From: an uncultured bacterium | GTDB lineage: Bacteria; Babelota; Babeliae; Babelales; Babelaceae | Direction: 5' to 3' | Assembly (NCBI GenBank): GCA_963717435.1 | Contig: OY970332.1 | Coordinates: forward strand, 1,089,903 to 1,153,902 | DNA: 64,000 bases | Shown: positions 7,044 to 27,770 of the stretch, in pieces | Layout of the letters: every line of letters starts with the position of its first letter | Position numbering within the stretch: the stretch's first letter is position 1 | Translations under genes and position numbers: made by a program | The notes under the pieces: generated by a model | The model's input: the letters and a program-made list of their open reading frames with translations, nothing else | Databases searched by the model: none | What the model was told of the DNA's origin: nothing

Positions 7044-8735
7044 TTAACTCGCTATTCTCAAATTTGTCCATGGAGACATAGCGCTACTTACCCTTGACGA
7101 AGGAGACACGCCACCGCCACCACCAGGTGTCATCATTGAACCTACTGGCAAGCCAAACAATTGATTTGCAATCAATGGCGTTGTTACGCCATTTGCATAT
7201 GAAATATTCTGGGTAAAAATATTATTACTATTTAGTGTATAAATTCCATACGAGTTGGCATCCACCGTTGCTGCATTTTGGCTAACCATGCAACCTGAAA
7301 TCACATTGCTTGATGAACTGGCATCTAAGTATATGCCGTAAGCCTGCTGCAGCGACGTGGCTGCCGTATTACTTTTTATTACGCAATTCGATATATTATT
7401 TCCCGTGCTATTAGCTGCACCGGAACTGAGGTATATACCAATAAAAACTTGACCTTGTGCAGTATTTGATTCGATTCTGCAGGACGTAATATCGTTTGCT
7501 TGTGCCTGCGCTATTTGGATCCCATAGAAGGTTGTTGTATGCAGATTACCTGATATCAAACAATCACTAATGAAATTACTATAGCTGAGTGTACCTACCA
7601 CAACAAGGCCGGGGCTAAGACGTTGATTATTTGTAATTAAACATCTTAAGACTGAATTTAATGCTGAGGCTGAAATATAAAAAGCATTTAAAAAACATGT
7701 ATTTCCGCTAATCACGCAATCTTCAAATACATTACCTGCTGTCAGGCCCGACGAAGCAGGGGAAGCTGAACTATTCCCAATTAAAGATACAAATGCTCCC
7801 GATGATGAAGAAGTAGCAATGTTTCCCTGAGCCACACAGTTCCTGACAAAATTATTAGAGCTGTATTGAAGGTTAAAACAAGTAAAATCGACAGGAACAG
7901 TATTGCCAAGAAATTGACAATTTTCAATAAAATTTTGGCTACAGGTATTAGCAGACAGAGAATTCAGCGCTATCCCGTAAGATACGCCTGCGTTGATGAG
8001 ATTATTTCTAATTGAGACATCTGAGATAATATTATTAGAGCAAAGTGATGATACAGTTGTAAGCTGTATGGCATACAGATTACCAGTTGAGCCACCTCCC
8101 GTGTTTTCACTTATATCAATATTTTTTAAAGAACAAGAATTTGAGTCTGTTAAGCCTATAAATGAAAAGCTACTGCTGTTTGTAGTATTATTATTAAACG
8201 TGCAACCTGAAACAAGAACTGATTGGCAGTTTGAAAGATTTATGCCAAAATCTGAAGAGGCATTGGAAAAACAGCCTATAAAGTTGCAGTTATTGATTTG
8301 CGAAGCCGTTATATTTGACCCACCCGTTCCGGTAAAAGTACCAGAAAAATCTATACCCCGTGTCTGGCAATTTGCAAAATCAAGATTTTGCAAAGTAATC
8401 ACACTACAACCTGCCTGAGCTAATACGCCAGCACGGGTAAAGCCAAGTAGCGTCCCGTTTTGTATCGTTACGTTTGTAACACCGGGCGCAATTACGATTC
8501 CGTTACAACTTGCTGTCGCCGTTGTCTGGATCACTGAATATTCGTTCAGGTCCAATGTAACATAACTTGCCTGAATCAAGATCGTTCCGTTAGGATCGCC
8601 GCTTGATGTAATATTTGTTCCAAGTTCGTAGTTACCGGAATGCGTAATTAAAAAATCTGTCGTATGCGTTGTGTTAAAAAAAGATATTAAAAAAAATAAG
8701 CTTAAAATTAATTTATTAAATTCTTTTGCCCGCAT
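7044..8735 (-). CDS. Secreted parallel beta-helix repeat protein, paralog 5 (start trimmed)
   Basis: The ORF track gives 7044-8870, but the first 45 codons read through a GC-rich intergenic repeat. Met46 (MRAKEFNKLILSLFFLISFF, ATG at 8735) begins a normal signal peptide followed by the family N-terminus (DFLITHSGNYELG...YVTLDLNEY). The C-terminus is ...SPWTNLRIAS. Confidence 0.7.
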   Translation of the reverse strand: MRAKEFNKLILSLFFLISFFNTTHTTDFLITHSGNYELGTNITSSGDPNGTILIQASYVTLDLNEYSVIQTTATASCNGIVIAPGVTNVTIQNGTLLGFTRAGVLAQAGCSVITLQNLDFANCQTRGIDFSGTFTGTGGSNITASQINNCNFIGCFSNASSDFGINLSNCQSVLVSGCTFNNNTTNSSSFSFIGLTDSNSCSLKNIDISENTGGGSTGNLYAIQLTTVSSLCSNNIISDVSIRNNLINAGVSYGIALNSLSANTCSQNFIENCQFLGNTVPVDFTCFNLQYSSNNFVRNCVAQGNIATSSSSGAFVSLIGNSSASPASSGLTAGNVFEDCVISGNTCFLNAFYISASALNSVLRCLITNNQRLSPGLVVVGTLSYSNFISDCLISGNLHTTTFYGIQIAQAQANDITSCRIESNTAQGQVFIGIYLSSGAANSTGNNISNCVIKSNTAATSLQQAYGIYLDASSSSNVISGCMVSQNAATVDANSYGIYTLNSNNIFTQNISYANGVTTPLIANQLFGLPVGSMMTPGGGGGVSPSSRVSSAMSPWTNLRIAS

Positions 8736-8807
8736 CCCTCGATACACCCTTCGGGCACTCCCAGGCTTCGTGCAAGACTTCGCCGGGCGCGGGGGGAGGA
8801 GCGGCTT
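8736..8807. repeat. Diverged copy of the GC-rich miniature element family
   Basis: ccctcgatacacccttcgggcactcc...gccgggcgcggggggaggagcgg shares the ccctcgataca core with the copies at 23927, 29571, 41548 and 45382. It is a GC-rich island in AT-rich DNA. Confidence 0.45.
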
Positions 8808-9016
8808 TTGGGAATTATTTTTTTGAGTTTTAACCACCTTGATAAACTTATTAATTGTTTTGCAAATCATTAATTAGTCATCCTTTTTTTGATTTATATC
8901 TTCCTGACTGACTCGGGCAAATTTTGCCAACCTTCTTTGGAGCGGGTTTTTTATTTTTCCCCGCTCCTGCGCATATCATATTCAACTTTTTTACGAGCTT
9001 CAACATATAATCCCTT

Positions 9017-12000
9017 TTAATTAACCGAAATATTTGTCCATGGAGCTGTAACTGCATTTAGGTTCGATATGTCTGTGGATATAGAGGTTGATCCTGAAAT
9101 AAATTGGCTGTATGGATTTGTGTTTTTTGTCGCAATGTTTTGAACAAATGCCGCAATTGTCGCGTTATTTGGCTCTATACGATATCCATAATCATTTCTT
9201 GAAGCTTGGCAGTTTCTTACAGTGTTATTTGCTCCATTCGCGTTTCTTATACCCACTGAACTTGCGGTTACACCAGCATTTGCCGTCTGACCCAATGCAA
9301 TACAGTTATACAACAACGAATCGTTACATGTATTTAAATCGAAACCAAATGCACCAAATAGTCCCGCGGTACTTGATGTTGCATTATTACTATCAGCAAA
9401 GCAACTTATACAAGAGAGCCTTATGGCATTATTGAAACTGAAACCATAAGCAATTGCAGATGCAGATGCACCAGTTGATATGTTATTTACGGCCCGCGAA
9501 TTTATAAATAAGTTGTCATTACAGTTTGCATTCACCAAGAACCCGTATGCCGTTGTCGTTCCACTATTTATGCCAGCAGTACAAGTATCGAATGTATTAC
9601 ATGTGGAAGATGAAACTAAATCGAAACCGTATATGGAACCGTTTGCTACCGTATTTGATCTTGCCGTGCAATATTTGAATGAACTGTTTGTTACAGCATT
9701 CATTAAGAAGCCAGAGCTTCCCGAGTTGTCGCACGCGTCAACAACAAGCATATCCACTTTAACTGAGTTATTAACACTTACTACTGTTAGGGTTAATGCA
9801 TTTGAAGTCAGACCGTTTAGATTAACGCGACAGGTATTGATTTTCAAATCAGAAGCATAGTTAATAAACAGTGGGCTATTTGCACCGTTGGCTGTTGAAC
9901 AAGAGAAAATATCGCAATTGTTAATTAGACCCTCGTTCAATGTACCAGTTCCGGACGTACCATTAAGGGCGATTCCACCAGTTGCGCAAGATGTTATTGT
10001 TGTGGCCAAAATCTTATAGCGATCAACGTTTGACTGCAGCGTCAAACCTGTTCCTGTAAATCCATTAATTCTGCCACCCGTTACTATAACATCGGTGTAA
10101 TTTGAGCTAACAACAACACCATTAACGCCCGTGCTTGCATTTGTTTGTCTTAAGGTGAAGCATGAAAGATCGAGTGTCACATACGAAGAGTTTATTGTTA
10201 TCGCTGTTGTGTTATTTGCGCCAGTAAATGATATATCTGAACCCAATCTATAGACGCCCGAAGTTGTTATCACGTACGGAGTTGAACCTGAACCAAAATT
10301 TGCTTGGGTTATTATTGTCGCCGCGCACTCATCCGCATTTAATGTTGCAAGTATTGTCCAGGTTGCCGCAAAGTCGTTTACTACTATAGTTTGTAAAGCT
10401 GCAATACTTGTAAATGTATTTAAAACGTTTGTATTTATTGTATTTAATACTGTGAATGTATTTGCGGTGCTTATATTTGCTATCGCCGTGAAAGTATTTA
10501 GCACGTTCGTGTTTATTGTCGCCAGTATCGTCCACGTATTATTAAAGTCTTGCTGAGTTTGCGCACAACACGCTGTCACTGAGTTTTTCAAGTCAGCGAT
10601 TGCTGTAAATGTATTTAGCACGTTGGTGTTTATTGTATTTAATACCGTAAATGTTGCCGCATTGCTTAGATTTGCGAGAATCGTCCACGTTGCTGCAAAG
10701 TCTGAAATTATTGTGTTATTGATAGCCGAAAGTATCGTCCATGTGCTATTGAAATCGTTAACAACTGTATTTTGCAGAGTTGCAATACTTGTGAAAGTAT
10801 TTAGCACGTTGGTATTTATTGTCGCCAATATTGTCCATGTATTATTAAAGTCTTGCTGCGTTTGCGCACAACATGCTGTCACAGTGTTTTGTAATTCTGC
10901 AATTGCTGTAAATGTATTTACGCTGCTTATATTTGCAAGTATCGTCCATGTGCTATTGAAATCGTTAACAACTGTATTTTGCAGAGTTGCGATACTCGTG
11001 AAAGTATTTAGCACGTTGGTATTTATTGTCGCCAATATTGTCCATGTATTATTAAAGTCTTGCTGCGTTTGCGCACAACACGCTGTCACTGAATTTTTCA
11101 AGTCAGCGATTGCTGTAAATGTATTTACGCTGCTTATATTTGCAAGTATCGTCCATGTGCTATTGAAATCGTTAACAACTGTATTTTGCAGAGTTGCGAT
11201 ACTCGTGAAAGTATTTAGCACGTTGGTATTTATTGTCGCCAGTATTGTCCATGTATTATTAAAGTCTTGCTGCGTTTGCGCACAACACGCTGTCACTGAA
11301 TTTTTTAAATCTGCGATTGCTGTAAATGTATTTACGCTGCTTATATTTGCAAGTATTGTCCATGTGCTATTAAAGTCTGAAACTATCGTGTTTTCGATAG
11401 CAGCTAATATTGTCCAAGTACTATTGAAATCGTTAACAACTGTATTTTGCAGATTCGCAATACTCGTGAAAGTATTTAGCACGTTGGTATTTATTGTCGC
11501 CAATATTGTCCATGTATTATTAAAGTCTTGCTGTGTTTGCGCACAACATGCTGTCACAGTGTTTTGTAATTCTGCAATTGCTGTAAATGTATTTACGCTG
11601 CTTATATTTGCAAGTATCGTCCATGTGCTATTAAAGTCTGAAACTATCGTGTTTAATATATTTGCTTCTATTGTCCAAGTACTATTGAAATCGTTAACAA
11701 CTGTATTTTGCAGATTCGCAATACTCGTGAAAGTATTTAGCACGTTCGTGTTTATTGTCGCCAATATTGTCCATGTATTATCAAAATCCTGCTGGGTTTG
11801 GGCACAACATGCTGTTAACGTGTTCTGTAATTCTGCAATTGCTGTAAATGTATTTACGCTGCTTATATTTGCAAGTATCGTCCATGTGCTATTAAAGTCT
11901 GAAACTATCGTGTTTAATATATTTGCTTCTATTGTCCAAGTACTATTGAAATCGTTAACAACTGTATTTTGCAGATTCGCAATACTCGTGAAAGTATTTA

Positions 12001-17506: not shown

Positions 17507-18688
17507 TTACTTTTTGCGATTTTTAAATTTTCTTATTATCCATGAAGAGACGAAAAACAGGCCCAATATTATAAACGCAAATTTTAATAATAGAGTAATC
17601 GAATCTATATAGCTTCCAGTTTTTTGTATAACAACTTCTTCGTCATAAAATACTTTGGGCGCGCCACAATCTTGATCTTCTGAGTCTAAAATCACTTTTT
17701 GTTGAATGTCGATTTTAACTTCGCCATCAAGAATTTTTCTAATAAATTTATCAACGCGATACGAATATTCTTCAGGCTTACAAAAAATAGAACCGAAGTG
17801 CCCGGGACCGTCAGTTATCCAAAGTCTTTTGTATCCGGTAACAGAATCATAAACTTGGCGCACCGCTTCAACCGGCGCTTTTTCGTCATTTTTGCATACT
17901 ATAAATAAAGCTGGTGTATTAATACTTTTTGCTGCTTGCGCAGGGTAAATTGGAACCATGCAAGTATTAATAACAGTAGCATCTTTTTTTGCTATAGTTT
18001 TTAGGGCCATTTTCAAAGTTTCTTGAACATATTGGTTCCAGCGATATTTATAAATTAAAGTTCTCATTGGAGTGCATAGATCGTAGCCGAAAATTTTGCA
18101 CTGGAAATATTCTATTAATCTTCGCAACACTTCTTCACTGGATTCAAATGGGCAGTCATAGATTCCGCCGGCAAAAATTTTAGGATCAATATTTTGTGCC
18201 AATATAGAAGCAACGGCCCCCATTGAGAACCCATAAACTATTAATGGCACTTTATTTAAATCAGGGTCAGATTTAATAAATTCTGCCGCACCGATAACGT
18301 CATATGCTTCGTCCCTACCAAAAGAACAGCATTGCCCTAAGGTATTTTCACCGTGGGCCCTAAAGTCAAAAGTCATGACGTTATAATCTTTAAACATAAG
18401 TCTTAAGAAAGATATATCTTTTTTATCGCACATAAATCCGTGACAAATTAATATAGTCGCCGCTGCGTCATTACGTCTTAAAACGTACCCGCTACGAGTT
18501 ATTTTTTTGTCTGAATCGGCGCCCTCTTTTACCGAAAAATTAACTGTTTCTAAAACACCATTAAAATATTTTTCCGATTTTTCTGTAGTTTTTGTTTGCT
18601 CTGGCAAAAAGCTTGAGTTTAAATTAAAACAGATAACTGTTGAAAATATGGCTGTGATTAAAAATTTTATAGAAAACTTAATATGCAT
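17507..18688 (-). CDS. Alpha/beta-hydrolase with N-terminal signal and C-terminal TM anchor
   Basis: 393 aa with nucleophile elbow GFSMGA and HGF...FDFRAHGEN. The N-terminus is hydrophobic (FLITAIFSTVICF). The C-terminus has a TM segment plus a basic tail (FAFIILGLFFVSSWIIRKFKNRKK). Confidence 0.7.
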   Translation of the reverse strand: MHIKFSIKFLITAIFSTVICFNLNSSFLPEQTKTTEKSEKYFNGVLETVNFSVKEGADSDKKITRSGYVLRRNDAAATILICHGFMCDKKDISFLRLMFKDYNVMTFDFRAHGENTLGQCCSFGRDEAYDVIGAAEFIKSDPDLNKVPLIVYGFSMGAVASILAQNIDPKIFAGGIYDCPFESSEEVLRRLIEYFQCKIFGYDLCTPMRTLIYKYRWNQYVQETLKMALKTIAKKDATVINTCMVPIYPAQAAKSINTPALFIVCKNDEKAPVEAVRQVYDSVTGYKRLWITDGPGHFGSIFCKPEEYSYRVDKFIRKILDGEVKIDIQQKVILDSEDQDCGAPKVFYDEEVVIQKTGSYIDSITLLLKFAFIILGLFFVSSWIIRKFKNRKK

Positions 18689-18698
18689 AATTATACCC

Positions 18699-19661
18699 TT
18701 ATCTTAAAACAGCTAAACGCTTATTATAAACTTGTTTTAAATGCCCCATATGCATCGATTTTTGCTCCTGCCCATAAGGTGAGCCTGGCAGCGATGACCA
18801 TATGTGCCCAACTTTTTTAACGGCACTTTCAAAATGCCCCTTTTTTAAATCTTCTATGGCACCTGCCCTGTGCAATAAGACAAGAGCCGCAATATCTTGA
18901 TTGATGGGCCCGAAGTTTTTTGCACCTATCAAAGATGCAAGTGAATCCCAAGTTTTGGCCAAAAATTGATATCTGCCTGCAGCACTTGAGCAAAAAGTTT
19001 TCCCATTAATTACTCCACATGAAACTGTTCTTGGATGATCATGAAAACTTTTAAAATATTCACCCATATATTTTAACCTATAACCGTCTGGCTTAAATGC
19101 CCCCTCGCAATAGGCTATAGTATCCAGAAAAGCTTTGACCTGGACATTGCTTAATAAAGTTTTAAGTTTTGCAGAATTTATCGGATATTTTTTATCTATT
19201 ATCTGATCAATTTTATTTTGCAAATTAGAAACTACAAACTTTCTTATACTTTTTTCGTTAATATTGTCTTTAAATTCAAGCTTAACCACTTTATTATCAA
19301 CTTTGTATGGCAACTTATTCTCATAAACAACATAAATATTGGTTATTTTTTTCGGATCATAATTTTTGTAAACTTTATTAAGATCGTTAATGTCAAGATT
19401 AGCACTGATAAATCCTAGGTCAGCTTTGATAAACTGCGGAAATTCACTAGCTTCTTGGATCGCTGTCTTGCTTTGATCTAACATATCTGTATTTGACGCA
19501 AATTTATTATTATAAAAATGAACAATAGTATATGGAGAAGATTTTAAATTTGCCGCAAAACTGTTTTTTGTAAAAACTTCCACAGTTTTGCCCGATAAAC
19601 TATTTACGCTTATTACGCTTAGAAAAATTCCCAAAAACATGCTTGTCGCACGCAGCTTCAT
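18699..19661 (-). CDS. Exported phage-lambda-R-type lytic transglycosylase (GH104-like) with an extra N-terminal domain
   Basis: The C-terminal ~150 aa align by eye with lambda R: LDTIAYCEGA (catalytic Glu context), HPR, SSAAGRYQFLAKTWD, IWSSLPGSPYGQ. There is an N-terminal signal peptide and an unassigned ~150-aa domain. Confidence 0.75.
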   Translation of the reverse strand: MKLRATSMFLGIFLSVISVNSLSGKTVEVFTKNSFAANLKSSPYTIVHFYNNKFASNTDMLDQSKTAIQEASEFPQFIKADLGFISANLDINDLNKVYKNYDPKKITNIYVVYENKLPYKVDNKVVKLEFKDNINEKSIRKFVVSNLQNKIDQIIDKKYPINSAKLKTLLSNVQVKAFLDTIAYCEGAFKPDGYRLKYMGEYFKSFHDHPRTVSCGVINGKTFCSSAAGRYQFLAKTWDSLASLIGAKNFGPINQDIAALVLLHRAGAIEDLKKGHFESAVKKVGHIWSSLPGSPYGQEQKSMHMGHLKQVYNKRLAVLR

Positions 19662-19884
19662 ACTTCACCCCTAAAGTTTGCTGTTAACCAAAACCACCCA
19701 CTTATTTTTTATTATATCTGATCCATCTACTATAATTATATAATTATTGAGGCAGGCTTTTAAATAGTTTTAGCTAATTTATTTTCAGCCTGAATTATTT
19801 GGGCGTTATTTGTGCATATAATTAATTTTGTAAAACCTCAAATCAACCATGTTTTTTGAAGTTTCAAAGAATTATGGGAAGTAA

Positions 19885-19920
19885 AATAGCGAGTTGCTAT
19901 CTAGATAACAACTCGCTATT
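19885..19920 (-). terminator. Hairpin terminator candidate downstream of the TrxR-Trx gene
   Basis: Near-perfect 36-nt palindrome AATAGCGAGTTG-ctatctagataa-CAACTCGCTATT lying 23 nt after the stop at 19944. It is followed on the minus strand by a T-rich run. Confidence 0.55.
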
Positions 19921-19943
19921 AATTTAGTTTAAAAATTATTTAA

Positions 19944-21389
19944 TCACTGCAAAATATCCCCAACAAACTGGGTAAGTTGGAACTTGGTCATAACAGAATC
20001 ATGTCTTCGAACAATCTGACCATTTTTATAAACCAAAATATATGGCACTTTGTTAACCCCAAGATCAGTGGCAAGCTTGGCCGATACACTGGTATCTATT
20101 TTGACAAACTTAACTTTATCCACAAACTTAGCCGCGACAAGTTCAATAACTGGCAACATCTGCATGCATGAGGGGCAATAAGGGGCGTAAAAATCTAAGA
20201 TCACAGGGATTTTTGAGGCAACCACTTCTCTATCAAAGTCTTCTTTAGATGCTAATTTTGTAATCTTAATTGGCTCTATGCCATCTTCAGGTTCGTAGAT
20301 ATTCTTGTATATTTTGGCACCACTTTTTTCGATAACTTCAATATCTCTCAAGAAAGCCAGCGCATCTAAAGCAGCTTTAATGCCATCGCCGGCAGCAACC
20401 CCGGCCTGCCTATACCTGAAATCAGCAACATCACCTGCTGCAAAAATTCCAGGCAAAGAAGTCTCTTGGGTAGGAGATTTGACTGTAATATACCCATTTT
20501 TATCAAGATTTATATAATTATCGAATATCTTAGTGTTGGGTTCATGCCCTATAGCTAGAAATACTCCCCCTATATCCAAATTTGTTTTTTCTTTAGTAGC
20601 GGCGTCTTCAAGCTCGATAGATCTGACATGATCAGAATCGCCCATTATTTTGGTAATTTTGGTATTAAATTTAACCGTTATATTATTAAAGCTTTTTAAT
20701 TTTTCAATCATGGCTGGGGCGGCACGCATTTTATCGGTTCTTACCAATATTGTTATGCTTTTTGCATAGCCTGAAAGTTGAAGAGCCTCTTCAACCGCAG
20801 AATCTCCTCCCCCTACAACCACAACATTATCGCCTTTATGATAAGGCGCGTCGCAAACGGCGCAGGTTGTGACACCCTTACCCCAATACTGATCCTCTCC
20901 CTGAACCCCCAGCTTTTTAGGGCTGGCCCCAGTTGCAATAATAACAGAAAGCGCATGTATTGTGTTATTATCTTCTGTTTTTAAAATATATGGCCAAGAA
21001 GAAAAGTTAACTTCTTTGATAACTTCAGGGGTTACCCTTGCCCCAAAAGATTCCGCTTGGGATTGCAGTAGTTTCATAACATCTGGGCCCATAATCTTGG
21101 GAACTCCGGGCCAGTTTTCTATATATGACGTGCCGGTAAGTTGTCCACCAGGTTTGGCCCCTTGGAAAACAACGGAGTAAATCTTGCCCCGAGCAGCATA
21201 AAGAGCCGCGCTTAAACCTGCCGGACCCGAACCTATAATTGCGACGGGAACTATGTTTTTATACTGTCCCAGGTCAACTTTATGTGAGTAATCTAAACTT
21301 TTACTGATTTTCGACCTTCGTAGGTAAAAAGTAAAAGAAAATATACTTACAATTAGCAAATAGAAAACAATACTTCTTTTATATTCCAT
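19944..21389 (-). CDS. Membrane-anchored thioredoxin reductase fused to a C-terminal thioredoxin domain
   Basis: 481 aa with an N-terminal TM (IVFYLLIVSIFSFTFYL). TrxR motifs are GSGPAGLSAALYAARG, CAVCDA and GGGDSAVEEA. The C-terminal ~110 aa form a thioredoxin fold with a CPSC active site (VILDFYAPYCPSCMQM...VPYILVYKNGQ). Confidence 0.8.
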   Translation of the reverse strand: MEYKRSIVFYLLIVSIFSFTFYLRRSKISKSLDYSHKVDLGQYKNIVPVAIIGSGPAGLSAALYAARGKIYSVVFQGAKPGGQLTGTSYIENWPGVPKIMGPDVMKLLQSQAESFGARVTPEVIKEVNFSSWPYILKTEDNNTIHALSVIIATGASPKKLGVQGEDQYWGKGVTTCAVCDAPYHKGDNVVVVGGGDSAVEEALQLSGYAKSITILVRTDKMRAAPAMIEKLKSFNNITVKFNTKITKIMGDSDHVRSIELEDAATKEKTNLDIGGVFLAIGHEPNTKIFDNYINLDKNGYITVKSPTQETSLPGIFAAGDVADFRYRQAGVAAGDGIKAALDALAFLRDIEVIEKSGAKIYKNIYEPEDGIEPIKITKLASKEDFDREVVASKIPVILDFYAPYCPSCMQMLPVIELVAAKFVDKVKFVKIDTSVSAKLATDLGVNKVPYILVYKNGQIVRRHDSVMTKFQLTQFVGDILQ

Positions 21390-21417
21390 ATATACACCTT
21401 TTTAAGATTAGGGGCTT

Positions 21418-21445
21418 TTGACAATTAACATATGACTTTTATACT
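21418..21445 (+). promoter_or_regulatory. Sigma70-like promoter candidate for the FtsH-like gene
   Basis: TTGACA (21418-21423), a 16-nt spacer, then TATACT (21440-21445), ~57 nt upstream of the ATG at 21503. This is a consensus match only. Confidence 0.4.
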
Positions 21446-21502
21446 TAAAGTCTAATAGTAGATATAGAGATTATAGATAATTTATAAAAGGTAAAAAAAG
21501 AT

Positions 21503-23923
21503 ATGAAAAACTTGTCAGTAGGTCTATTGACAGTATTGATGCTGTTAGCTTGCCCAAGCTTACAGTCTGAGCAGCTTCAAGAAACTGAGCAAACCCAAGA
21601 ATTGCAAAATCAAGTCGACCCGGCTGAGAATATCAACAAATATTCAGCTGCACTTTTAAGACTTAACGAGCGACTGCTTGAAGTCTTCCAGTCAACCGGG
21701 CACTATATAAACAAAGGCAACTCGAACTTAAATTCAGAGCAAAAAAAGGCTGCCACAAAATGGGTGCAAGAAAACCAAAAAAACATAAATTATATCAATA
21801 AGCAGTTAATCGACACCCCATCAGAAAATTTAATTACCCAATACGCTACAAAAATCAATTGCATGGTTTTAAACCTAAACGTAGCTATAATTTCAAATTT
21901 TAAAAACTTGATTAATACTGACATAACAATCAAAAGATCTGTCTTATTAGAGCCCCATGCTATAGAAATAGACAGTGTTATTGCTGATGTTGATACAAAG
22001 CTTGGAACAGCCTCAAAAAAGATAAATAATCTGGGTCTTACAAACTTGAATCTGGCTGTAAGAAAGCTTGAAGATATAGATTTTAGATATGGCATAACCC
22101 CCAAAATCAAAACTGCATTAATGGGCGCTTTTGTCTTGTGGGTAGCTTGGATTTTTACTCCGGAAACATATCTTGATTCCCTAAAACACAAACTTAATGT
22201 CTTTGATTTTTGGTCAAAAACTCAGACAAAACTCCAAGAAAACAACGTCCCTGCTGAACCTTCTAAATCCAACACAAATAGTAGGCTTAGGATAAATCCC
22301 CTGACTAGGAGAATTGAAAGTAGATTCCCTAAGAAACAAACTAAAGCAAAGAAAACTGACGCAAACTCAGGGAAAAAAAGCCTAGTTAAGGGCTTTTTGG
22401 GAGGCATAATAAGTGCGGTATTACTTGATGCTTATAAAAAAGATGGTGGCGATTTTATAAAAGATTTACATCATAACTTTCTAAGCGGTATAAGTTCAGG
22501 CGCCAGCAAGTTTTATAGCTTATTGCGCGGATCAGGTACAAAAATTGGAAGTAATGGCTACGAATATGTCAGTTCATCAAATACATTAGAAGATCAAAAG
22601 CTAGTGGGCCTTGAAGATCAAAAGCAGGCATTGGGACAACTTGTTAATGCGCTTAAAAATTTGCAAGTCTTTGAAAGAGCAAAAATAAATATTAATAAAG
22701 CATATTTGATTACGGGCCCTGCAGGTTGCGGTAAAAGCTATTTGGCAAGAGCTGTGGCAGGATCGATCAATAAAAGCTTAGAAGAAAGTGGACTTTCAAA
22801 TAAAATCGGGTTCAAAGAAGTTAAGTTCTCTGATCTTATGTGGAAAAAGGATGACGGAATTTCAGAACTGATTAAAGAAGCGCAATCTGAGGCGCCATGT
22901 ATTTTATTTATAGACGAAATTCACTTATTAAGATTACAAACAGAGGGCAACGGCAAAGCTCTAACAGAGTTTTTGACAGTTTTAAGTGGCATAAATTCAG
23001 ACAATAATGGGCTAAAACCGGTAATATTAATTGCTGCAACAAATAGACCCGATCTTCTTGACCCTGCACTATTACGTTCAGGTCGATTTGAAGTTGTCAA
23101 AGTTGAAAAGCCAAATTTTAATACTAGAAAACAGTATTTTGAAATAATGTTAAAAGATCAGGGGATCAATCCTGAAAATTTTGATATCGAAAGATTGTCG
23201 CAGCTTACAGAAAACTGCTCGTATGCGCAACTTGATCAGGTTATAAAAAATGCAAGATTCAAGGCAAAATCGCAGGCACGCGGTATCTCTTCGACAAAAG
23301 ATCTTGAAGATAGTATCGACACTATAGTATTCAAATTAAAAAACGAATCTGAGTTGCCAATATCTCAAGAATCAAAAAATATAATCGCTGCACATTTGGC
23401 AGGAAAAACTTTATCGCACATATTGTTTGACGGGAAAATTAATCACAAAATATTGAAAGTAACACTGAGAGCCAAAATCCCTGCTGTTAAAGAAAGCATG
23501 GTATATTCACCGCAGGATAAGATAAAAGCTATCAAAGAAAAGAAAGTTAAGTACGGAAATATTTTTGTTTACTCAAAAGACGAGATCGCTAATCTTGAAA
23601 CGTCTGAGAGCTTAGAGTTGCAAATTAAAATATTATTATCTGGCGCTATTGCTGAGCAAATAATTTTAAACACACAACATGTTGTGAAAAAATCTGACAA
23701 AACTAAAGCTTTAGAGCTTGCAAAAAGAATAATATATAACGGTGTTAGACCTGAAATATTAAGTAAAAACTTGCAAAGAGAATACGAGAGCAAAGCTGTA
23801 CTATTACTTGAAAAACTTGAACTTGAAACAAAAGCTCTTGTTGCAAGTAATAAAGAAAAATTAGGCAAGATTTACTCTGATCTTCTTGAAAAACAGACTC
23901 TTTCAAGATCTGAGTTGTTATAA
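21503..23923 (+). CDS. FtsH-like AAA+ protein with an inactivated M41 protease site and a long N-terminal extension
   Basis: 806 aa. The AAA module is intact: Walker A GPAGCGKS, Walker B ILFIDEIH, SRH AATNRPDLLDPALLRSGRFE. The C-terminal domain is colinear with FtsH, but HEXXH is replaced by HLAGK (IIAAHLAGKTLSHIL). The ~390-aa N-terminal region has a signal peptide and hydrophobic segments. Confidence 0.75.
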   Translation: MKNLSVGLLTVLMLLACPSLQSEQLQETEQTQELQNQVDPAENINKYSAALLRLNERLLEVFQSTGHYINKGNSNLNSEQKKAATKWVQENQKNINYINKQLIDTPSENLITQYATKINCMVLNLNVAIISNFKNLINTDITIKRSVLLEPHAIEIDSVIADVDTKLGTASKKINNLGLTNLNLAVRKLEDIDFRYGITPKIKTALMGAFVLWVAWIFTPETYLDSLKHKLNVFDFWSKTQTKLQENNVPAEPSKSNTNSRLRINPLTRRIESRFPKKQTKAKKTDANSGKKSLVKGFLGGIISAVLLDAYKKDGGDFIKDLHHNFLSGISSGASKFYSLLRGSGTKIGSNGYEYVSSSNTLEDQKLVGLEDQKQALGQLVNALKNLQVFERAKININKAYLITGPAGCGKSYLARAVAGSINKSLEESGLSNKIGFKEVKFSDLMWKKDDGISELIKEAQSEAPCILFIDEIHLLRLQTEGNGKALTEFLTVLSGINSDNNGLKPVILIAATNRPDLLDPALLRSGRFEVVKVEKPNFNTRKQYFEIMLKDQGINPENFDIERLSQLTENCSYAQLDQVIKNARFKAKSQARGISSTKDLEDSIDTIVFKLKNESELPISQESKNIIAAHLAGKTLSHILFDGKINHKILKVTLRAKIPAVKESMVYSPQDKIKAIKEKKVKYGNIFVYSKDEIANLETSESLELQIKILLSGAIAEQIILNTQHVVKKSDKTKALELAKRIIYNGVRPEILSKNLQREYESKAVLLLEKLELETKALVASNKEKLGKIYSDLLEKQTLSRSELL

Positions 23924-23926
23924 GAA

Positions 23927-24007
23927 TTAATTTTTTACCACCATCCCTCGATACATTTTTCTTAGCTATCGCTACGAAAAACACTCGGGACGAGCGGGTA
24001 TAGAACT
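23927..24007. repeat. GC-rich miniature element, truncated copy, inverted relative to 29571
   Basis: Begins 4 nt after the stop codon with the TIR ttaatttttta. ccctcgatacatttttct...cgaaaaacactcgggacgagcgggta matches the reverse complement of 29571-29695. Confidence 0.6.
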
Positions 24008-24014
24008 ATAGAGA

Positions 24015-24485
24015 CTACCCTTTAATTTTATCGATCATCTTAATTCTGTGTGTATATACTTTGCCCTCAGGAGTATTATCGCCCTTAAAATTTGTAGCGA
24101 GCCATGCAAGCACAATTTTTATCGAAAGTTCTCTGTCAACAAAATCAGCGGGCAATACTAAAACATTAATATTGTCGTCAGCTTTTGCAGCAACTGCAAC
24201 TTCAACTGACCATGCAACGCCGGCATAAATACCATCAAATCTGTTTGCTGCAATTGCTACTCCAACACCGGAACCGCACAATAAAATCCCCAAATCTGCT
24301 TGTCTATTTTTTATCGTCATAACAGCAGATTTTGCATATATAGGGTAATCTGTTCTTTCTTGAGTGTGCGTCCCAACATCAGTAATTTCTAGATTCTTAA
24401 TATGATATTCAAGATCAGATTTTAAGAATTCTTTAAGTTTATATCCCCTGTGATCAGAGCCGATCACAATTTTTATATTCTTCAA
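24015..24485 (-). CDS. rpiB: Ribose-5-phosphate isomerase B (RpiB/LacAB family)
   Basis: 156 aa with IVIGSDHRGYKLKE and LCGSGVGVAIAANR motifs. Confidence 0.85.
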   Translation of the reverse strand: MKNIKIVIGSDHRGYKLKEFLKSDLEYHIKNLEITDVGTHTQERTDYPIYAKSAVMTIKNRQADLGILLCGSGVGVAIAANRFDGIYAGVAWSVEVAVAAKADDNINVLVLPADFVDRELSIKIVLAWLATNFKGDNTPEGKVYTHRIKMIDKIKG

Positions 24486-24507
24486 AATTTTACTCCCAAA
24501 TTTTTAT

Positions 24508-25131
24508 TTACCAGCATAACTGCACTGTATATTTTGTTGTTCTTATTACTAATTTCAGCTTCCCAGAATAATTATCTTCTGGTTTAAATTTTGCTATATA
24601 AATAGACCTGTATCTTGTTGAAGTTCTGCCAAATATTAGAGAAAATTCTGGGCTAAGTTCTGAAATATTCGTAAATTCAACAGGACTATATTTTTTGCCA
24701 CCAACTTCCAAAAAAACTTTCCAGTCGATATTATTGTTAAAATAAGTTACGCCATCAAAGTGCATATAGCCTACGTCTTGCGCATCTTTGGGAGGGAGTA
24801 ATAAATAAAAAGTTGTAAATTGATTATATTGCTCAAGCTCTGCTTCTAACTTTTTTTGCTCAGTAGTATCAAGTACCCCAGAACGCTCTAATTTAATTTT
24901 TCTGTATGCATCCTGAACATCTTTGTTAACCCAAAGTGCATCAAAAAGCCCGACCGTTGTAAGCTGATCATATACTTTTTCTGAACGTATATAACTTCTG
25001 GCTTTACTTAAATCTAAATCAACTGAGCAGGCCTGGTCAAAAGTTTTTTTTGCATAATCGATATACCGTGAACAACCTGAGATTAAGCCTAAAATTATTA
25101 ATAAAAAAAATGTTTTTACTCTAAGTTGCAT
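24508..25131 (-). CDS. Hypothetical lipoprotein
   Basis: 207 aa with a signal peptide and lipobox (LILGLISGC). No family recognised. Confidence 0.55.
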   Translation of the reverse strand: MQLRVKTFFLLIILGLISGCSRYIDYAKKTFDQACSVDLDLSKARSYIRSEKVYDQLTTVGLFDALWVNKDVQDAYRKIKLERSGVLDTTEQKKLEAELEQYNQFTTFYLLLPPKDAQDVGYMHFDGVTYFNNNIDWKVFLEVGGKKYSPVEFTNISELSPEFSLIFGRTSTRYRSIYIAKFKPEDNYSGKLKLVIRTTKYTVQLCW

Positions 25132-25307
25132 GTAAATCTCTCTAAACTTAAATTAAATTATCAAGCAATTTAAATTTGATCTAAAATTTTATACTAAAAA
25201 AAAATTATGCTGGTAATATAACAAGAAAAATAAATTTAACCAAAAGTGAATAACTAAAAATAAAAAGTAAAAAATAAAAAAATAGTTAAAAACAAATAGG
25301 GGAAAAT

Positions 25308-26552
25308 ATGTATCTTTCTTGGTTCATAGCACGAAGATTTTTACGCGTGGCGTCAACAGAAAAAAACATAAGATCTATGTTGCAAATATGTTTTATGAGT
25401 ATATTTATCGGGACATTTGCTTTAGCGCTAGTTGCAGCAATAATGAATGGGTTTGAAAAAGAAACCTATAAAAAACTTCAGGGGATTAACGCAGATTTGA
25501 TTATTAGATCACGAGAGCAATTAGATTTTGAAAAAATAAAAAAAGTATTAGAGTCAAAATTTGCAAAAGAGATAGAAGCTATTACACCAAGCACAATGCA
25601 CCAATTAATTTTAAGAAATGACGAGACAGAATCAACAAGTTTGGTGGCTGTCAAAGCAGTCGATCCAAAAACTATATCCAAAGTAACAACTTTATTGGAT
25701 TCTATAACCAAAAGTTCTCATAATAGCTCTGAAGATGCAGAAAAATTGCTTGAAAACAAAAATATATTACTGGGCACACAACTTGCGCACCACATAGGCG
25801 CAGAAATTGGCAACCCAATTTCGCTATTATTTACACAGGAAGAAAAAATCTCCAAAAATAAAGTTACTTTAGATAAAGAAAAAGCTACTGTATCCGGAAT
25901 TTTCAAAACAGGCATAGACGAGCTTGATAATAATATAGTTGTTATGTCTTTAGATTTGTTTAACTCTATATTCCCAGATACGGGAATCACAACAATAGAA
26001 ATAAAATTAAGGCCAGGTATAAGTAGCGCAAACAGCGAAAAATTAAAAAAAGAGCTGCAGGACCAATTTGATTTAAATATATATTCTTGGAAAGATCTTT
26101 ATCCGCCATTAGTCGCAGCTTTGGTACTTGAAAAATATGCCATGATTTTTATTCTTGCGCTTATTACGCTGGTTGCAAGTATGAATCTTATATCTTTACT
26201 TTTTATGTATATTACTCAAAAACGCGTTAACATAGCCATATTAAAAGCTATGGGCATGCAACAAAAAAATATTTCCGCAATATTTATAATTATTGGCATG
26301 AGCTTAAGCTTAGTGGCCTGTTTTTCGGGTCTGTGTCTATCTTGGGTTGCAGTTTATATTCTTAATAAATACCCATTCATAAAGCTTCCGGATGTATATT
26401 ACGTCACTCAGCTTCCAGCACAGATGGACATTCAAATAAATATTATTGTTATTTTAATTGTGACTGCTTTAAGCTTTATTGCGTCGATTTTACCAGCAAT
26501 ACGAACAAAGCAGATTAATATCGCAAATATTTTAAAATTTGAGAGCCAGTAG
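25308..26552 (+). CDS. LolC/LolE-type (FtsX/MacB-like) ABC transporter permease
   Basis: 414 aa: an N-terminal TM, a large periplasmic domain, then three C-terminal TMs. It has the typical start (WFIARRFLR) and the ILKAMG motif. Confidence 0.8.
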   Translation: MYLSWFIARRFLRVASTEKNIRSMLQICFMSIFIGTFALALVAAIMNGFEKETYKKLQGINADLIIRSREQLDFEKIKKVLESKFAKEIEAITPSTMHQLILRNDETESTSLVAVKAVDPKTISKVTTLLDSITKSSHNSSEDAEKLLENKNILLGTQLAHHIGAEIGNPISLLFTQEEKISKNKVTLDKEKATVSGIFKTGIDELDNNIVVMSLDLFNSIFPDTGITTIEIKLRPGISSANSEKLKKELQDQFDLNIYSWKDLYPPLVAALVLEKYAMIFILALITLVASMNLISLLFMYITQKRVNIAILKAMGMQQKNISAIFIIIGMSLSLVACFSGLCLSWVAVYILNKYPFIKLPDVYYVTQLPAQMDIQINIIVILIVTALSFIASILPAIRTKQINIANILKFESQ

Positions 26553-26555
26553 GTC

Positions 26556-27770
26556 ATGAATACTATTAGTATTAAATCTAAATTAAAAGATTTTAATCTT
26601 GAAAATAAAACTGTTTTTTTGAGAGCCGATCTTAATGTCACTATTATAAAAAACCCAGATGGCTCAAGAAAAATATTTAGTGATTATAAAATTCAGGCAA
26701 TAAGACCAACTATAGACTTAATACTCTCAAAAAAAGGCCGAATAGTTTTGGCGACCCATATGGGCAGGCCCAAAAAACAGGAACCTGAATATTCTACTCA
26801 AATCATTTCTGAATATTTGGCACAGCTTGGTTATAAAATAGGCTTTGAAAATTTTAAAAATAGTCTTGATAAAAATATAATCTCAAAAAAACTCGAATCT
26901 GTAGATATAGTATTACTTGAAAATCTCAGATTCTGGCCCGAAGAAACATCTAATACTATAGACAGCAAAGAATTTGCAAAAAAATTATATAACTTGGCAG
27001 AATTTTATGTTAACGACGCATTTGGGGCGTTGCACAGGGAAAACAGCTCGGTGACGCAGCTTGCACAAATTTACCCAGAAAATAGAAAAACTATTGGGTT
27101 ATTAGTAGAAAAAGAGTTAAGGGAGCTTACAAAACTTAAAGATAACCCTGCAAGGCCGCTAACGCTTATTTTGGGTGGCGGAAAAGTCAAAGACAAGCTT
27201 GTGCTAATAGAGAGCTTGATAGAAAAAATAGACACGGTAATTTTATGTCCTGCGCTGGTCTTTACTATTTTAAGGTCCCAGGGATTTGAAGTTGGCTCCT
27301 CTCTTGTTGAACCCAACTTATTAGATTATTCAAAAAAGCTCTTAAATATCGCAAAGAATAAGAATCTAAAATTAGTTTTTCCTGAAGATTATTTAGTGGG
27401 AACCGGAACGGTTAATAAATTTGAAAAGTTACAATATAAAAATATATCAAGTTTTAATAGCTCAGATTTCGGTATATCTATAGGTCCAAAATCTGTAGAT
27501 ATTTTTAAAGATCTAATAAATAACTCTAAAACTATATTTTTTAACTGCGCCATGGGATTCTTTGATAAACCTGAGACTCTAGAATCTACGCAAAAACTTC
27601 TTAATATAATCGGCCAATCTAAAACTTATAGTATTGTCGGTGGTGGGGATTCTGTTGCAGCAGTGCAATATTTTGGACTTGAAAAGAATATAGATTTCTT
27701 ATCAACAGGCGGCGGTGCGACTTTGGAATTTTTGGCAGGAAAAGATTTACCCGGTTTAAAATATTTATAA
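26556..27770 (+). CDS. pgk: Phosphoglycerate kinase
   Basis: 404 aa with RADLNV, ATHMGRPK, VGGGDSVAAV and STGGGATLEFLAGKDLPG motifs. Confidence 0.9.
   Translation: MNTISIKSKLKDFNLENKTVFLRADLNVTIIKNPDGSRKIFSDYKIQAIRPTIDLILSKKGRIVLATHMGRPKKQEPEYSTQIISEYLAQLGYKIGFENFKNSLDKNIISKKLESVDIVLLENLRFWPEETSNTIDSKEFAKKLYNLAEFYVNDAFGALHRENSSVTQLAQIYPENRKTIGLLVEKELRELTKLKDNPARPLTLILGGGKVKDKLVLIESLIEKIDTVILCPALVFTILRSQGFEVGSSLVEPNLLDYSKKLLNIAKNKNLKLVFPEDYLVGTGTVNKFEKLQYKNISSFNSSDFGISIGPKSVDIFKDLINNSKTIFFNCAMGFFDKPETLESTQKLLNIIGQSKTYSIVGGGDSVAAVQYFGLEKNIDFLSTGGGATLEFLAGKDLPGLKYL

Follow-up and report, generated by a model that had tools for sequence, protein, structure and literature searches.

The 64-kb window (the whole stretch of DNA analysed here, from an uncultured bacterium of the Babelaceae) carries at positions 21503 to 23923 an open reading frame (ORF) whose 806-amino acid (aa) product, the query, is an FtsH-derived membrane pseudo-protease with FtsH ancestry, fold and predicted topology, conserved ATP-site residues and a dead protease site. 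The protein belongs to a large, previously unnamed FtsH-derived family that was found here only in the order Babeliales of the phylum Dependentiae, and in its predicted function it appears to be of the type of the plastid FtsHi proteins. With about even confidence, we propose that members of this family form a non-degradative, ATP-using membrane ring that binds, holds or remodels membrane or envelope proteins. The conserved AAA and M41 parts would build a predicted inner-membrane ring, either alone or together with paralogs of the same family, and ATP binding and hydrolysis would be used to bind, hold or remodel membrane and envelope proteins that are not degraded. The dead M41 chamber and a novel helical periplasmic domain would provide putative binding surfaces, much as in a natural 'trap'-type FtsH, and a processive threading machine in the style of FtsH would be unlikely.

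The substructures of the protein on which the argument rests are given below. Residue numbers are those of the 806-aa query, positions are those of the window, and codes beginning with G, L, P, f and g are our internal labels for genomes, loci, proteins, GTDB families and genera.

21503..23923, forward strand: whole ORF, 806 aa, FtsH-derived membrane pseudo-protease (Pfam, NCBIfam, alignment, fold search)
21512..21568, forward strand: N-terminal hydrophobic segment, residues 4-22, first transmembrane segment (TM1)/signal anchor or cleavable signal peptide (hydropathy)
21569..22105, forward strand: predicted periplasmic domain, residues 23-201, acidic, all-helical and family-specific (hydropathy, charge, AF2)
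22034..22063, forward strand: motif G-L-x3-N-x3-R of the periplasmic domain, GLTNLNLAVR, residues 178-187 (conservation in 36 members)
22106..22162, forward strand: second transmembrane segment (TM2), residues 202-220 (second conserved hydrophobic peak of the family)
22163..22594, forward strand: predicted cytoplasmic linker, residues 221-364 (hydropathy, charge, AF2 at low confidence)
22595..23338, forward strand: AAA+ module of the classical clade, residues 365-612, with FtsH as closest single domain (Pfam, NCBIfam, PDB sequence search)
22715..22738, forward strand: Walker A, GPAGCGKS, residues 405-412 (alignment)
22832..22858, forward strand: degenerate pore loop 1, DLMWKKDDG, with W447 at the aromatic position (HMMER alignment, AF2, anchor-based extraction)
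22901..22924, forward strand: Walker B, ILFIDEIH, residues 467-474 (alignment)
23033..23092, forward strand: second region of homology (SRH), AATNRPDLLDPALLRSGRFE, residues 511-530, with sensor-1 N514 and arginines R525 and R528 (alignment)
23360..23920, forward strand: M41-like pseudo-protease domain, residues 620-806 (sub-threshold Pfam match, FtsH_fam, alignment, fold search)
23393..23407, forward strand: ablated zinc site HLAGK, residues 631-635, on the HEXXH column (alignment)
23696..23698, forward strand: D732 on the column of the third zinc ligand, the Asp of the N-D motif in FtsH (alignment)

The loss of the protease site is evident at the level of single columns. HLAGK falls exactly on the HE[AS]GH column of the alignment of canonical FtsH sequences, the catalytic Glu being replaced by Leu and the second His by Lys, and H631, G634 and D732 of the query are common to canonical FtsH. 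An earlier note on this DNA had described the zinc site as destroyed and had named an intact HEXXH nearby as what would refute that description. The alignment bears the description out and extends it to the whole family, which lacks the catalytic Glu, and a motif search of the entire 806-aa protein found neither HExxH nor HxxEH at any position. The strings that the note quoted (Walker A, Walker B, the SRH string AATNRPDLLDPALLRSGRFE, HLAGK and those of the C-terminus) are all present exactly as given.

Column counts were taken from an alignment of the top 153 representatives at 50 % identity, 3 of which are non-family proteins. The column of the catalytic Glu is occupied by Gln in 92 sequences, Leu in 18, Phe in 17, Ile in 7, Met in 5, Val in 3 and Thr in 2. 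The only 3 Glu residues in it belong to multi-AAA true FtsH proteins of 1184-1367 aa, and the catalytic Glu is missing in 150/150 family representatives. The metal ligands are more variable: the first-His column holds His in 125 sequences and Tyr in 16, the second-His column His in 80, Gln in 21, Lys in 18 and Arg in 11, and the column of the third ligand holds Asp in 119 of 153, the ligands being lost in about half of the members. Since HQAGH is the commonest zinc-site motif of the family, the ancestral state was plausibly a classic Glu-to-Gln replacement, from which the site decayed further in some lineages, that of the query included. Engineered FtsH 'trap' mutants carry the same active-site Glu-to-Gln change. 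As in other Glu-to-Gln variants of zincins, the HQAGH consensus abolishes the general base and leaves the metal ligands in place; in this family, the change is natural, ancient and further decayed in many members, as in the HLAGK of the query. A natural pseudopeptidase of this kind is ADAM7, with HQLGH (PMC11266112).

It could be argued that the family is still proteolytic through a non-canonical catalytic arrangement, a possibility that we consider very improbable. About half of the family retains HQAGH plus the Asp (His...His...Asp), and the AGxxAE helix usually carries the Glu that corresponds to E479, which makes zinc binding plausible in those members. However, the query has neither the Glu nor the second His, no member has a general base, the M41-like domain contains no alternative HExxH, and the Glu-to-Gln replacement is a listed signature of inactive metallopeptidase homologs, ADAM7 among them (PMC11266112).

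That the degenerate site nevertheless sits in an FtsH-type protein is supported by several concordant lines of evidence. Pfam AAA (PF00004) matches the query at 3.5e-26, and the NCBIfam model FtsH_fam (TIGR01241) matches residues 365-745 with 143.5 bits against an equivalog cut-off of 600 bits; PRK10733 scores 99.4 against a cut-off of 1008. Pfam Peptidase_M41 remains below threshold (25.1 bits versus a gathering score of 29.9) and is insufficient when taken alone; the domain is identified as M41 by the FtsH_fam match that extends to residue 745, by the alignment with FtsH and by the fold search. These three agree, and the colinearity of the C-terminal domain with FtsH M41 that had been claimed from the letters of the DNA stands. 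The best match in a PDB sequence search was FtsH when scored per single domain. Foldseek searches with the AF2 model recovered FtsH of E. coli, T. maritima, A. aeolicus and T. thermophilus as best matches (2ce7, 3kds, 4ww0, 2dhr), followed by AFG3L2, YME1 and the Ycf2-FtsHi structures 8xku and 8xqw, in alignments of ~470 columns that span AAA and protease domains with E-values of ~1e-17 to 5e-21. Because these matches are all FtsH-type AAA plus M41 proteins over ~470 columns, the M41 fold is retained in the modelled query. An identity with CDC48, p97 or VAT was rejected: the query has a single AAA module and not two in tandem after a double-psi barrel N domain, and the high total scores of p97 and VAT arise because one query domain matches both D1 and D2.

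The order of parts in the query (anchor, periplasmic domain, TM2, AAA+, M41 fold) is that of bacterial FtsH (MEROPS M41, TIGR01241), which is also its best match per domain in sequence and its best match in fold, and Walker A, Walker B, sensor-1, the SRH and the Asp of the third ligand are common to both. Unlike bacterial FtsH, which carries HEXXH and the pore loop MFVG, the query has HLAGK and MWKK, a non-homologous, all-helical periplasmic domain of ~180 aa, a linker of ~140 aa and an insertion of ~15 aa in the M41-like domain. This insertion (around residues 668-690) is family-specific, and its G685 is invariant. Because the query fails the tests that define FtsH (HEXXH, pore loop, FtsH_ext and equivalog score), it is not a true FtsH. 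Public annotation of the family is generic, either 'AAA family ATPase' (one member, Candidatus Dependentiae bacterium, NCBI) or 'SpoVK/Ycf46/Vps4 family'.

The ATP site contrasts with the protease site in its conservation. Among the top representatives, the Walker A Lys is present in 152/153, the Walker B Asp in 150/153 and its Glu in 153/153, the sensor-1 Asn in 150/153, and the second SRH Arg (equivalent to E. coli R315; R528 of the query) in 153/153. The column of the first SRH Arg (equivalent to R312; R525 of the query) is different, with Gln in 87, Arg in 36 and Lys in 13 of the 153 sequences, and the query keeps both arginines. Pore loop 1 is degenerate. The query reads DLMWKKDDG at the place of the FtsH motif Ar-Phi-Gly (EMFVGVG), with the hydrophobic-Gly pair replaced by Lys-Lys, and extraction anchored on Walker B sets '...SGSDFVEMFVGVGA...' of FtsH against '...KFSDLMWKKDDG...' of the query. 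The motif is kept in 6/140 members and lost in 134/140; the column of W447 holds Trp, Tyr or Phe in 41 % of members, and the loop is shorter in most of them. An assignment of the pore-loop aromatic to F437 by MAFFT was discarded. In the HMMER alignment to VAT, it is W447 that falls on the pore-loop Trp, the AF2 model assigns F437 to strand beta-2 and shows residues 447-450 as a loop of low confidence, and the re-extraction anchored on Walker B also contradicts F437. Consequently, of the intact AAA motor that had been described for this gene, the ATP-site residues stand and pore loop 1 does not, with MWKK replacing Ar-Phi-Gly.

These patterns bear directly on the suggestion of a self-sufficient motor or translocase that pulls with the energy of ATP, in analogy to the plastid Ycf2-FtsHi import motor. 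Such a protein would draw polypeptides out of the inner membrane or pass them across it and, with the thioredoxin reductase-thioredoxin (TrxR-Trx) fusion encoded next to it, might keep exported proteins rich in Cys in the reduced state. The complete ATP site of the query, its two SRH arginines and Trp447, the presence of Ycf2-FtsHi chains among the top structural matches and the conserved head-to-head pairing with a membrane-anchored TrxR-Trx (described below) are consistent with such a motor. However, the substrate-gripping Ar-Phi-Gly is missing in 134/140 members, the aromatic of the query is followed by Lys-Lys-Asp-Asp, fewer than half of the members keep a pore-loop aromatic at all, and most lack the first SRH arginine. 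Furthermore, Foldseek identity is lower to the FtsHi chains (15-21 %) than to bacterial FtsH (22-26 %), and TrxR-Trx and the FtsH-like gene have been lost independently of each other in the same syntenic frame. We therefore regard a pulling motor as unlikely for the family as a whole; it is more plausible for the query, in view of the W447 and both arginines that its sequence keeps. The 'unfoldase or translocation motor' of the earlier note is thus weakened by the loss of the pore loop and by a first SRH Arg that is mostly Gln, and is left some room by the Trp and the arginines of the query.

The predicted topology is also that of FtsH. Hydrophobic peaks of the query lie at residues 4-22, 202-220 and 293-311, and family hydropathy shows two conserved peaks at ~6-20 and ~203-220 with only a weak hump at ~291-311. 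The 20 residues that follow the first peak contain 0 Lys or Arg and 6 Asp or Glu, and the stretch past TM2 is rich in Lys and Arg. The arrangement so predicted consists of an anchor, a periplasmic domain, TM2, and a cytoplasmic part with linker, AAA and M41-like domains. Residues 293-311 were rejected as a true transmembrane segment, which would put the ATPase in the periplasm; a Kyte-Doolittle (KD) value of 1.6 is reached there in 2/36 members, so that the hydrophobic segment previously placed around 300-315 is weak family-wide. The exported N-terminal region of ~390 aa proposed before does exist in part, its extent being reduced to residues ~23-201 (~180 residues) with 221-364 assigned to the cytoplasmic linker. 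A lipoprotein reading of the LLAC sequence as a family feature fails, a lipobox being present in 11/143 members.

The N-terminal region had also been said to have no counterpart in FtsH, which holds for its sequence and not for its topology. Neither FtsH_ext (PF06480) nor any other Pfam family matches the N-terminal region or its periplasmic domain, and comparison of the N-terminal profile of the family with that of canonical FtsH yielded no similarity (hhalign probability 0.2 %). The periplasmic domain is all-helical in the AF2 model, with pLDDT of ~70-80 for residues 40-130. Its G-L-x3-N-x3-R motif, the most conserved of the N-terminal region, lies 15 residues before TM2; among 36 members N183 never varies, and conservation reaches 90 % or more at G178, L179 and R187. 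The linker (~140 aa, basic) comprises a low-complexity stretch rich in Lys and Arg, the weak hydrophobic helix 293-311 and a conserved LRG with an invariant G343.

The family is widespread. A word-indexed search recovered just three close homologs at 36-39 % identity, and the same kind of search with a 36-sequence family alignment was swamped by canonical FtsH and added one new member, P0270. An exhaustive profile search revealed at least 150 clusters at 50 % identity, near-full-length, with E < 1e-110 and lengths of 750-950 aa. When the 36-member profile was applied to 261 Babeliales genomes, the best E-value per genome was bimodal: the family is present in ~172 of the 261 (1e-90 or better), in 13 GTDB families, and the remaining genomes score 1e-49 to 1e-86, the level of canonical FtsH, which matches the family profile only at positions ~337-631. 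All 10 re-examined genomes from the low positive range hold a true member, with an ORF of 760-960 aa and a match to the M41-like end, and an inflation of the count by FtsH proteins with duplicated AAA domains is ruled out by these full-length members. When only the N-terminal 365 aa of the query served as a single search sequence, the family was found in 20/261 genomes, a figure that reflects its limit of sensitivity and not the true distribution. The gene is present in all members of f2 (16/16), f11 (10/10) and f13 (5/5) and in about 77/80 of f21, and is absent from eight GTDB families: f3, f5, f12, f14, f15, f17 (0/35), f18 (0/12) and f20. Two family copies, often in tandem, occur in G195 (G195:C2:33593-38944), G198 (G198:C2:218811-223604) and G236 (G236:C23:15982-22756), and two copies are also found in G011 (C7 and C11) and at two sites of G008:C6; the genome of the window has one.

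All domains of the protein are under purifying selection. In two ortholog pairs (Nei-Gojobori), dN/dS was 0.08-0.13 for the AAA module, 0.11-0.24 for the M41-like domain and 0.25-0.43 for the N-terminal region, ratios that are rough given a saturated dS (above 1), with pN far below pS in every region. The view that the gene is a functionless pseudogene, a recent ftsH duplicate in decay, draws on the destroyed catalytic site and on a Pfam M41 match below threshold. It is effectively refuted, since intact ORFs are broadly distributed (750-950 aa, ~172 genomes, 13 GTDB families), purifying selection is evident and a near-consensus promoter precedes the gene; moreover, the family is monophyletic with a deep stem, its ATP-site residues are at least 98 % conserved and it has conserved motifs of its own. 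The recent pseudogene-like duplicate that the earlier note had entertained as a refutation can accordingly be set aside, and its comparison with the protease-dead FtsHi paralogs of plastids gains strong support from 150/150 representatives that lack the Glu, an intact ORF in ~172 genomes and an M41-like dN/dS of ~0.1-0.24.

A number of observations weigh against the proposed ATP-using, non-degradative ring. The first SRH Arg is replaced by Gln, Lys or other residues in ~76 % of the family, and mutants of E. coli FtsH at R312 bear on ATP hydrolysis; by analogy, many members may hydrolyse ATP poorly, which would make 'ATP-driven' too strong a term. Conversely, both SRH arginines and the pore-loop Trp survive in the query and in its subclade, so that the query could still translocate a substrate. 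The AF2 model was built from a multiple sequence alignment of 5 sequences and has a mean pLDDT of 63.9, with residues 189-351 unreliable. Finally, the gene was cleanly lost in several lineages, and its role is consequently dispensable in some lifestyles.

The genome of the window (1.198 Mb, a single contig) contains exactly one canonical ftsH, at G000:C1:956427-958247, which encodes 606 aa with an intact HEAGH and an M41 score of 205.8 bits; none was found within the window, as had been noted before. All 61 genomes sampled from the phylum have a canonical FtsH, 50-66 % identical to the copy of this genome, and the query is ~25 % identical to that copy. In an LG+G4 tree, the family is monophyletic (SH-aLRT 99) with a long stem (0.73) and lies outside the clade of all sampled canonical bacterial FtsH (SH-aLRT 97), Babeliales FtsH forms a tight clade (SH-aLRT 100), and branches of the family are 2-4 times longer than canonical ones. 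However, an approximately unbiased (AU) test did not reject a tree in which the family is joined to Babeliales FtsH (p = 0.54), the constrained tree being 3.3 log-likelihood units better. Because of this result, a lineage-specific duplication of Babeliales FtsH followed by fast divergence is fully compatible with the data, in a tree of the family and canonical bacterial FtsH in which long-branch effects limit the firmness of any statement of origin.

The ubiquity of canonical FtsH also raises a tentative alternative, to which we assign a real but clearly minor share of probability: the family could supply a non-catalytic subunit of mixed hexamers with the single canonical FtsH of the genome and could tune substrate choice or activity through its periplasmic domain and linker, leaving threading and cutting to the active subunits, as in plastid FtsHi with FtsH12 and in cyanobacterial type A/B hexamers. 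Besides the presence of canonical FtsH in every sampled genome, this alternative is favoured by the ring-building AAA plus M41 fold, which is the best conserved and most constrained part of the protein, by a decay (Glu, pore-loop motif and one arginine lost) of the kind that passive subunits of hetero-hexamers tolerate, and by the origin from Babeliales FtsH that the AU test leaves unrejected. FtsH12-FtsHi and a presumed inactive FtsH of Prochlorococcus provide precedents (PMC8197885, PMC9020784). However, low identity separates the two proteins of the same genome, their transmembrane and periplasmic parts are unrelated, and a linker of ~140 aa in one and a short linker in the other make co-assembly geometrically awkward. 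Tandem family copies (G195, G198, G236) suggest assemblies within the family, which moreover evolves 2-4 times faster than FtsH.

Other relatives of FtsH were encountered in these genomes. The genome of the window has a third FtsH-related gene (G000:C1:353286-354215; L119:1435-2364), whose 309-aa product combines a hydrophobic segment as N-terminal anchor with a complete AAA module of the FtsH type (GNPGNGKT, pore loop KWVGEG, IIFIDEID, GATNSKDRLDPALLRSGRFD). This product has no protease domain and scores 191.8 bits against the family profile. Canonical FtsH proteins of 880-950 aa with a tandem AAA duplication occur in G105, G104, G099, G100, G097, G232, G016, G039 and G002, where two matches (FtsH residues 1-410 and 130-606) lie in one open frame, and metagenomic three-AAA proteins of 1150-1370 aa with an intact HEAGH were also recovered (P0005-P0007, P0165, P0202, P0247).

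The sole conserved neighbour of the FtsH-like gene is a divergently transcribed gene for a cytoplasm-facing, membrane-anchored TrxR-Trx fusion. Just 5 codons separate the preceding in-frame stop from the ATG of the 806-aa ORF, and the promoter sits in a 113-bp spacer common to both genes.

19944..21389, reverse strand: divergent neighbour, membrane-anchored TrxR-Trx fusion, 481 aa (ORF and locus comparison)
21418..21445, forward strand: sigma-70-like promoter, TTGACA-16-TATACT (11/12), 58 bp before the ATG (consensus match only)

The head-to-head pairing holds for nearly all of the examined genomes that carry the family: it was recovered in 19/19 fetched distant loci, in the two closest relatives (L114 and L115) and in 7 of the 10 borderline genomes, and coordinates show it in at least 38 genomes, a set that partly coincides with the 19 fetched loci. 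Both genes are missing from all 58 genomes of f3, f5, f12, f14, f15, f17 and f20. The pair is embedded in a syntenic frame composed of an alpha/beta-hydrolase, TrxR-Trx, the FtsH-like gene, rpiB, a lolCE-like permease and pgk, with dnaA a few genes further on. Within this frame, G251 and G254 have kept the FtsH-like gene and lost the fusion, and G174, G090, G172, G260 and G034 have kept the fusion, which then adjoins rpiB. An obligate coupling was rejected, each gene having been cleanly lost alone in the same frame. Because the region is syntenic and each gene can be deleted by itself, the pairing is not evidence of an obligate partnership; it represents a lead for co-regulation or a shared process, and a functional connection is possible without being obligatory. 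The link to the many exported proteins of the window that had been suggested was supported by no test, the only conserved neighbour being the cytoplasm-facing fusion. A bolder proposal, which we consider improbable at present, is that the family is an independently arisen bacterial counterpart of Ycf2-FtsHi, in which an ATP-driven non-proteolytic ring of an intracellular parasite would act with TrxR-Trx to extract, hold or hand over cysteine-rich envelope or host-targeted proteins. If true, bacteria would possess a redox-coupled AAA+ system for membrane chaperoning or translocation, of a kind that has not been described in them.

The plastid proteins deserve closer comparison. The FtsHi proteins (Arabidopsis FtsHi1, 2, 4 and 5; the Ycf2-FtsHi motor, 8xku and 8xqw) are, like the query, derived from FtsH and membrane-anchored, with the AAA module kept and an M41 fold with an ablated zinc site (PMC11266112, PMC9020784), and they likewise coexist with active FtsH. 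Their zinc-site column reads TEVGV, NEAAM, REAAV and WAAGR, with nearly all active-site residues lost (PMC11266112), whereas in the family of the query (HQAGH...D) the His and the Gly typically survive and the second His and the Asp often do so as well. The family is bacterial and FtsHi is a plastid protein, and the source of the window has no plastid machinery; no link to a complex of the Ycf2/TIC type was seen in this analysis, in which Ycf2 itself was not searched for, and the origin of the family was probably independent of plastid FtsHi. A presumed inactive FtsH of Prochlorococcus marinus SS120 is cited in PMC8197885 and resembles the family in being a prokaryotic paralog with a lost protease motif beside active copies. 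Such copies are close cyanobacterial paralogs with canonical N-termini, whereas the family of the query forms a deep, divergent clade with a periplasmic domain of its own and a degenerate pore loop. Reviews present inactive prokaryotic FtsH as isolated copies only, SS120 being an example (PMC8197885).

Dependentiae are intracellular parasites of protists, and searches of full-text literature found nothing on Dependentiae together with FtsH and nothing on this family under Dependentiae together with AAA. Detailed work on FtsH pseudo-proteases is confined to plastids, and those of prokaryotes receive only passing mention; in this order of bacteria, selection has maintained a derivative of FtsH with a dead protease over long evolutionary time, in about two thirds of the sampled genomes. 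The decay is graded, with the Glu lost always, the pore-loop motif almost always, one SRH arginine usually and the metal ligands in about half of the members, and the series constitutes an experiment of nature on the parts of an AAA+ protease that a non-proteolytic job requires. The findings also correct a generic public annotation and provide a concrete gene pair with a membrane-anchored TrxR-Trx in poorly understood parasites of protists.

Several minor observations concern the surroundings of the gene. The TrxR-Trx fusion occurs in 164/261 genomes (E <= 1e-95) at 42-57 % identity, with a clade-level pattern that mirrors that of the FtsH-like gene. The frame (window 17507-27770, loci L015-L033) is syntenic in at least five GTDB families and is unusually stable for such divergent genomes. 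In G009 and G010 (genus g5; L154:~8300-10300 and L155:~8100-10000), the slot between TrxR-Trx and rpiB holds an unrelated 440-476-aa protein with a signal peptide, several hydrophobic segments and a C-terminal KDEL (…EQKDEL, …ALKDEL), an end that resembles a eukaryotic signal for retention in the endoplasmic reticulum, in a parasite of protists. This 1.7-kb slot was considered as a decayed copy of the FtsH-like gene and rejected, no similarity to the family being found by tblastn or HMM. Downstream of the FtsH-like gene, the 91-bp spacer between its stop codon and the convergent rpiB (23924-24014) contains a GC-rich hairpin, CGCTCGTCCCGAGTG, followed on the reverse strand by a run of T (23996-23982), which is probably the rpiB terminator.

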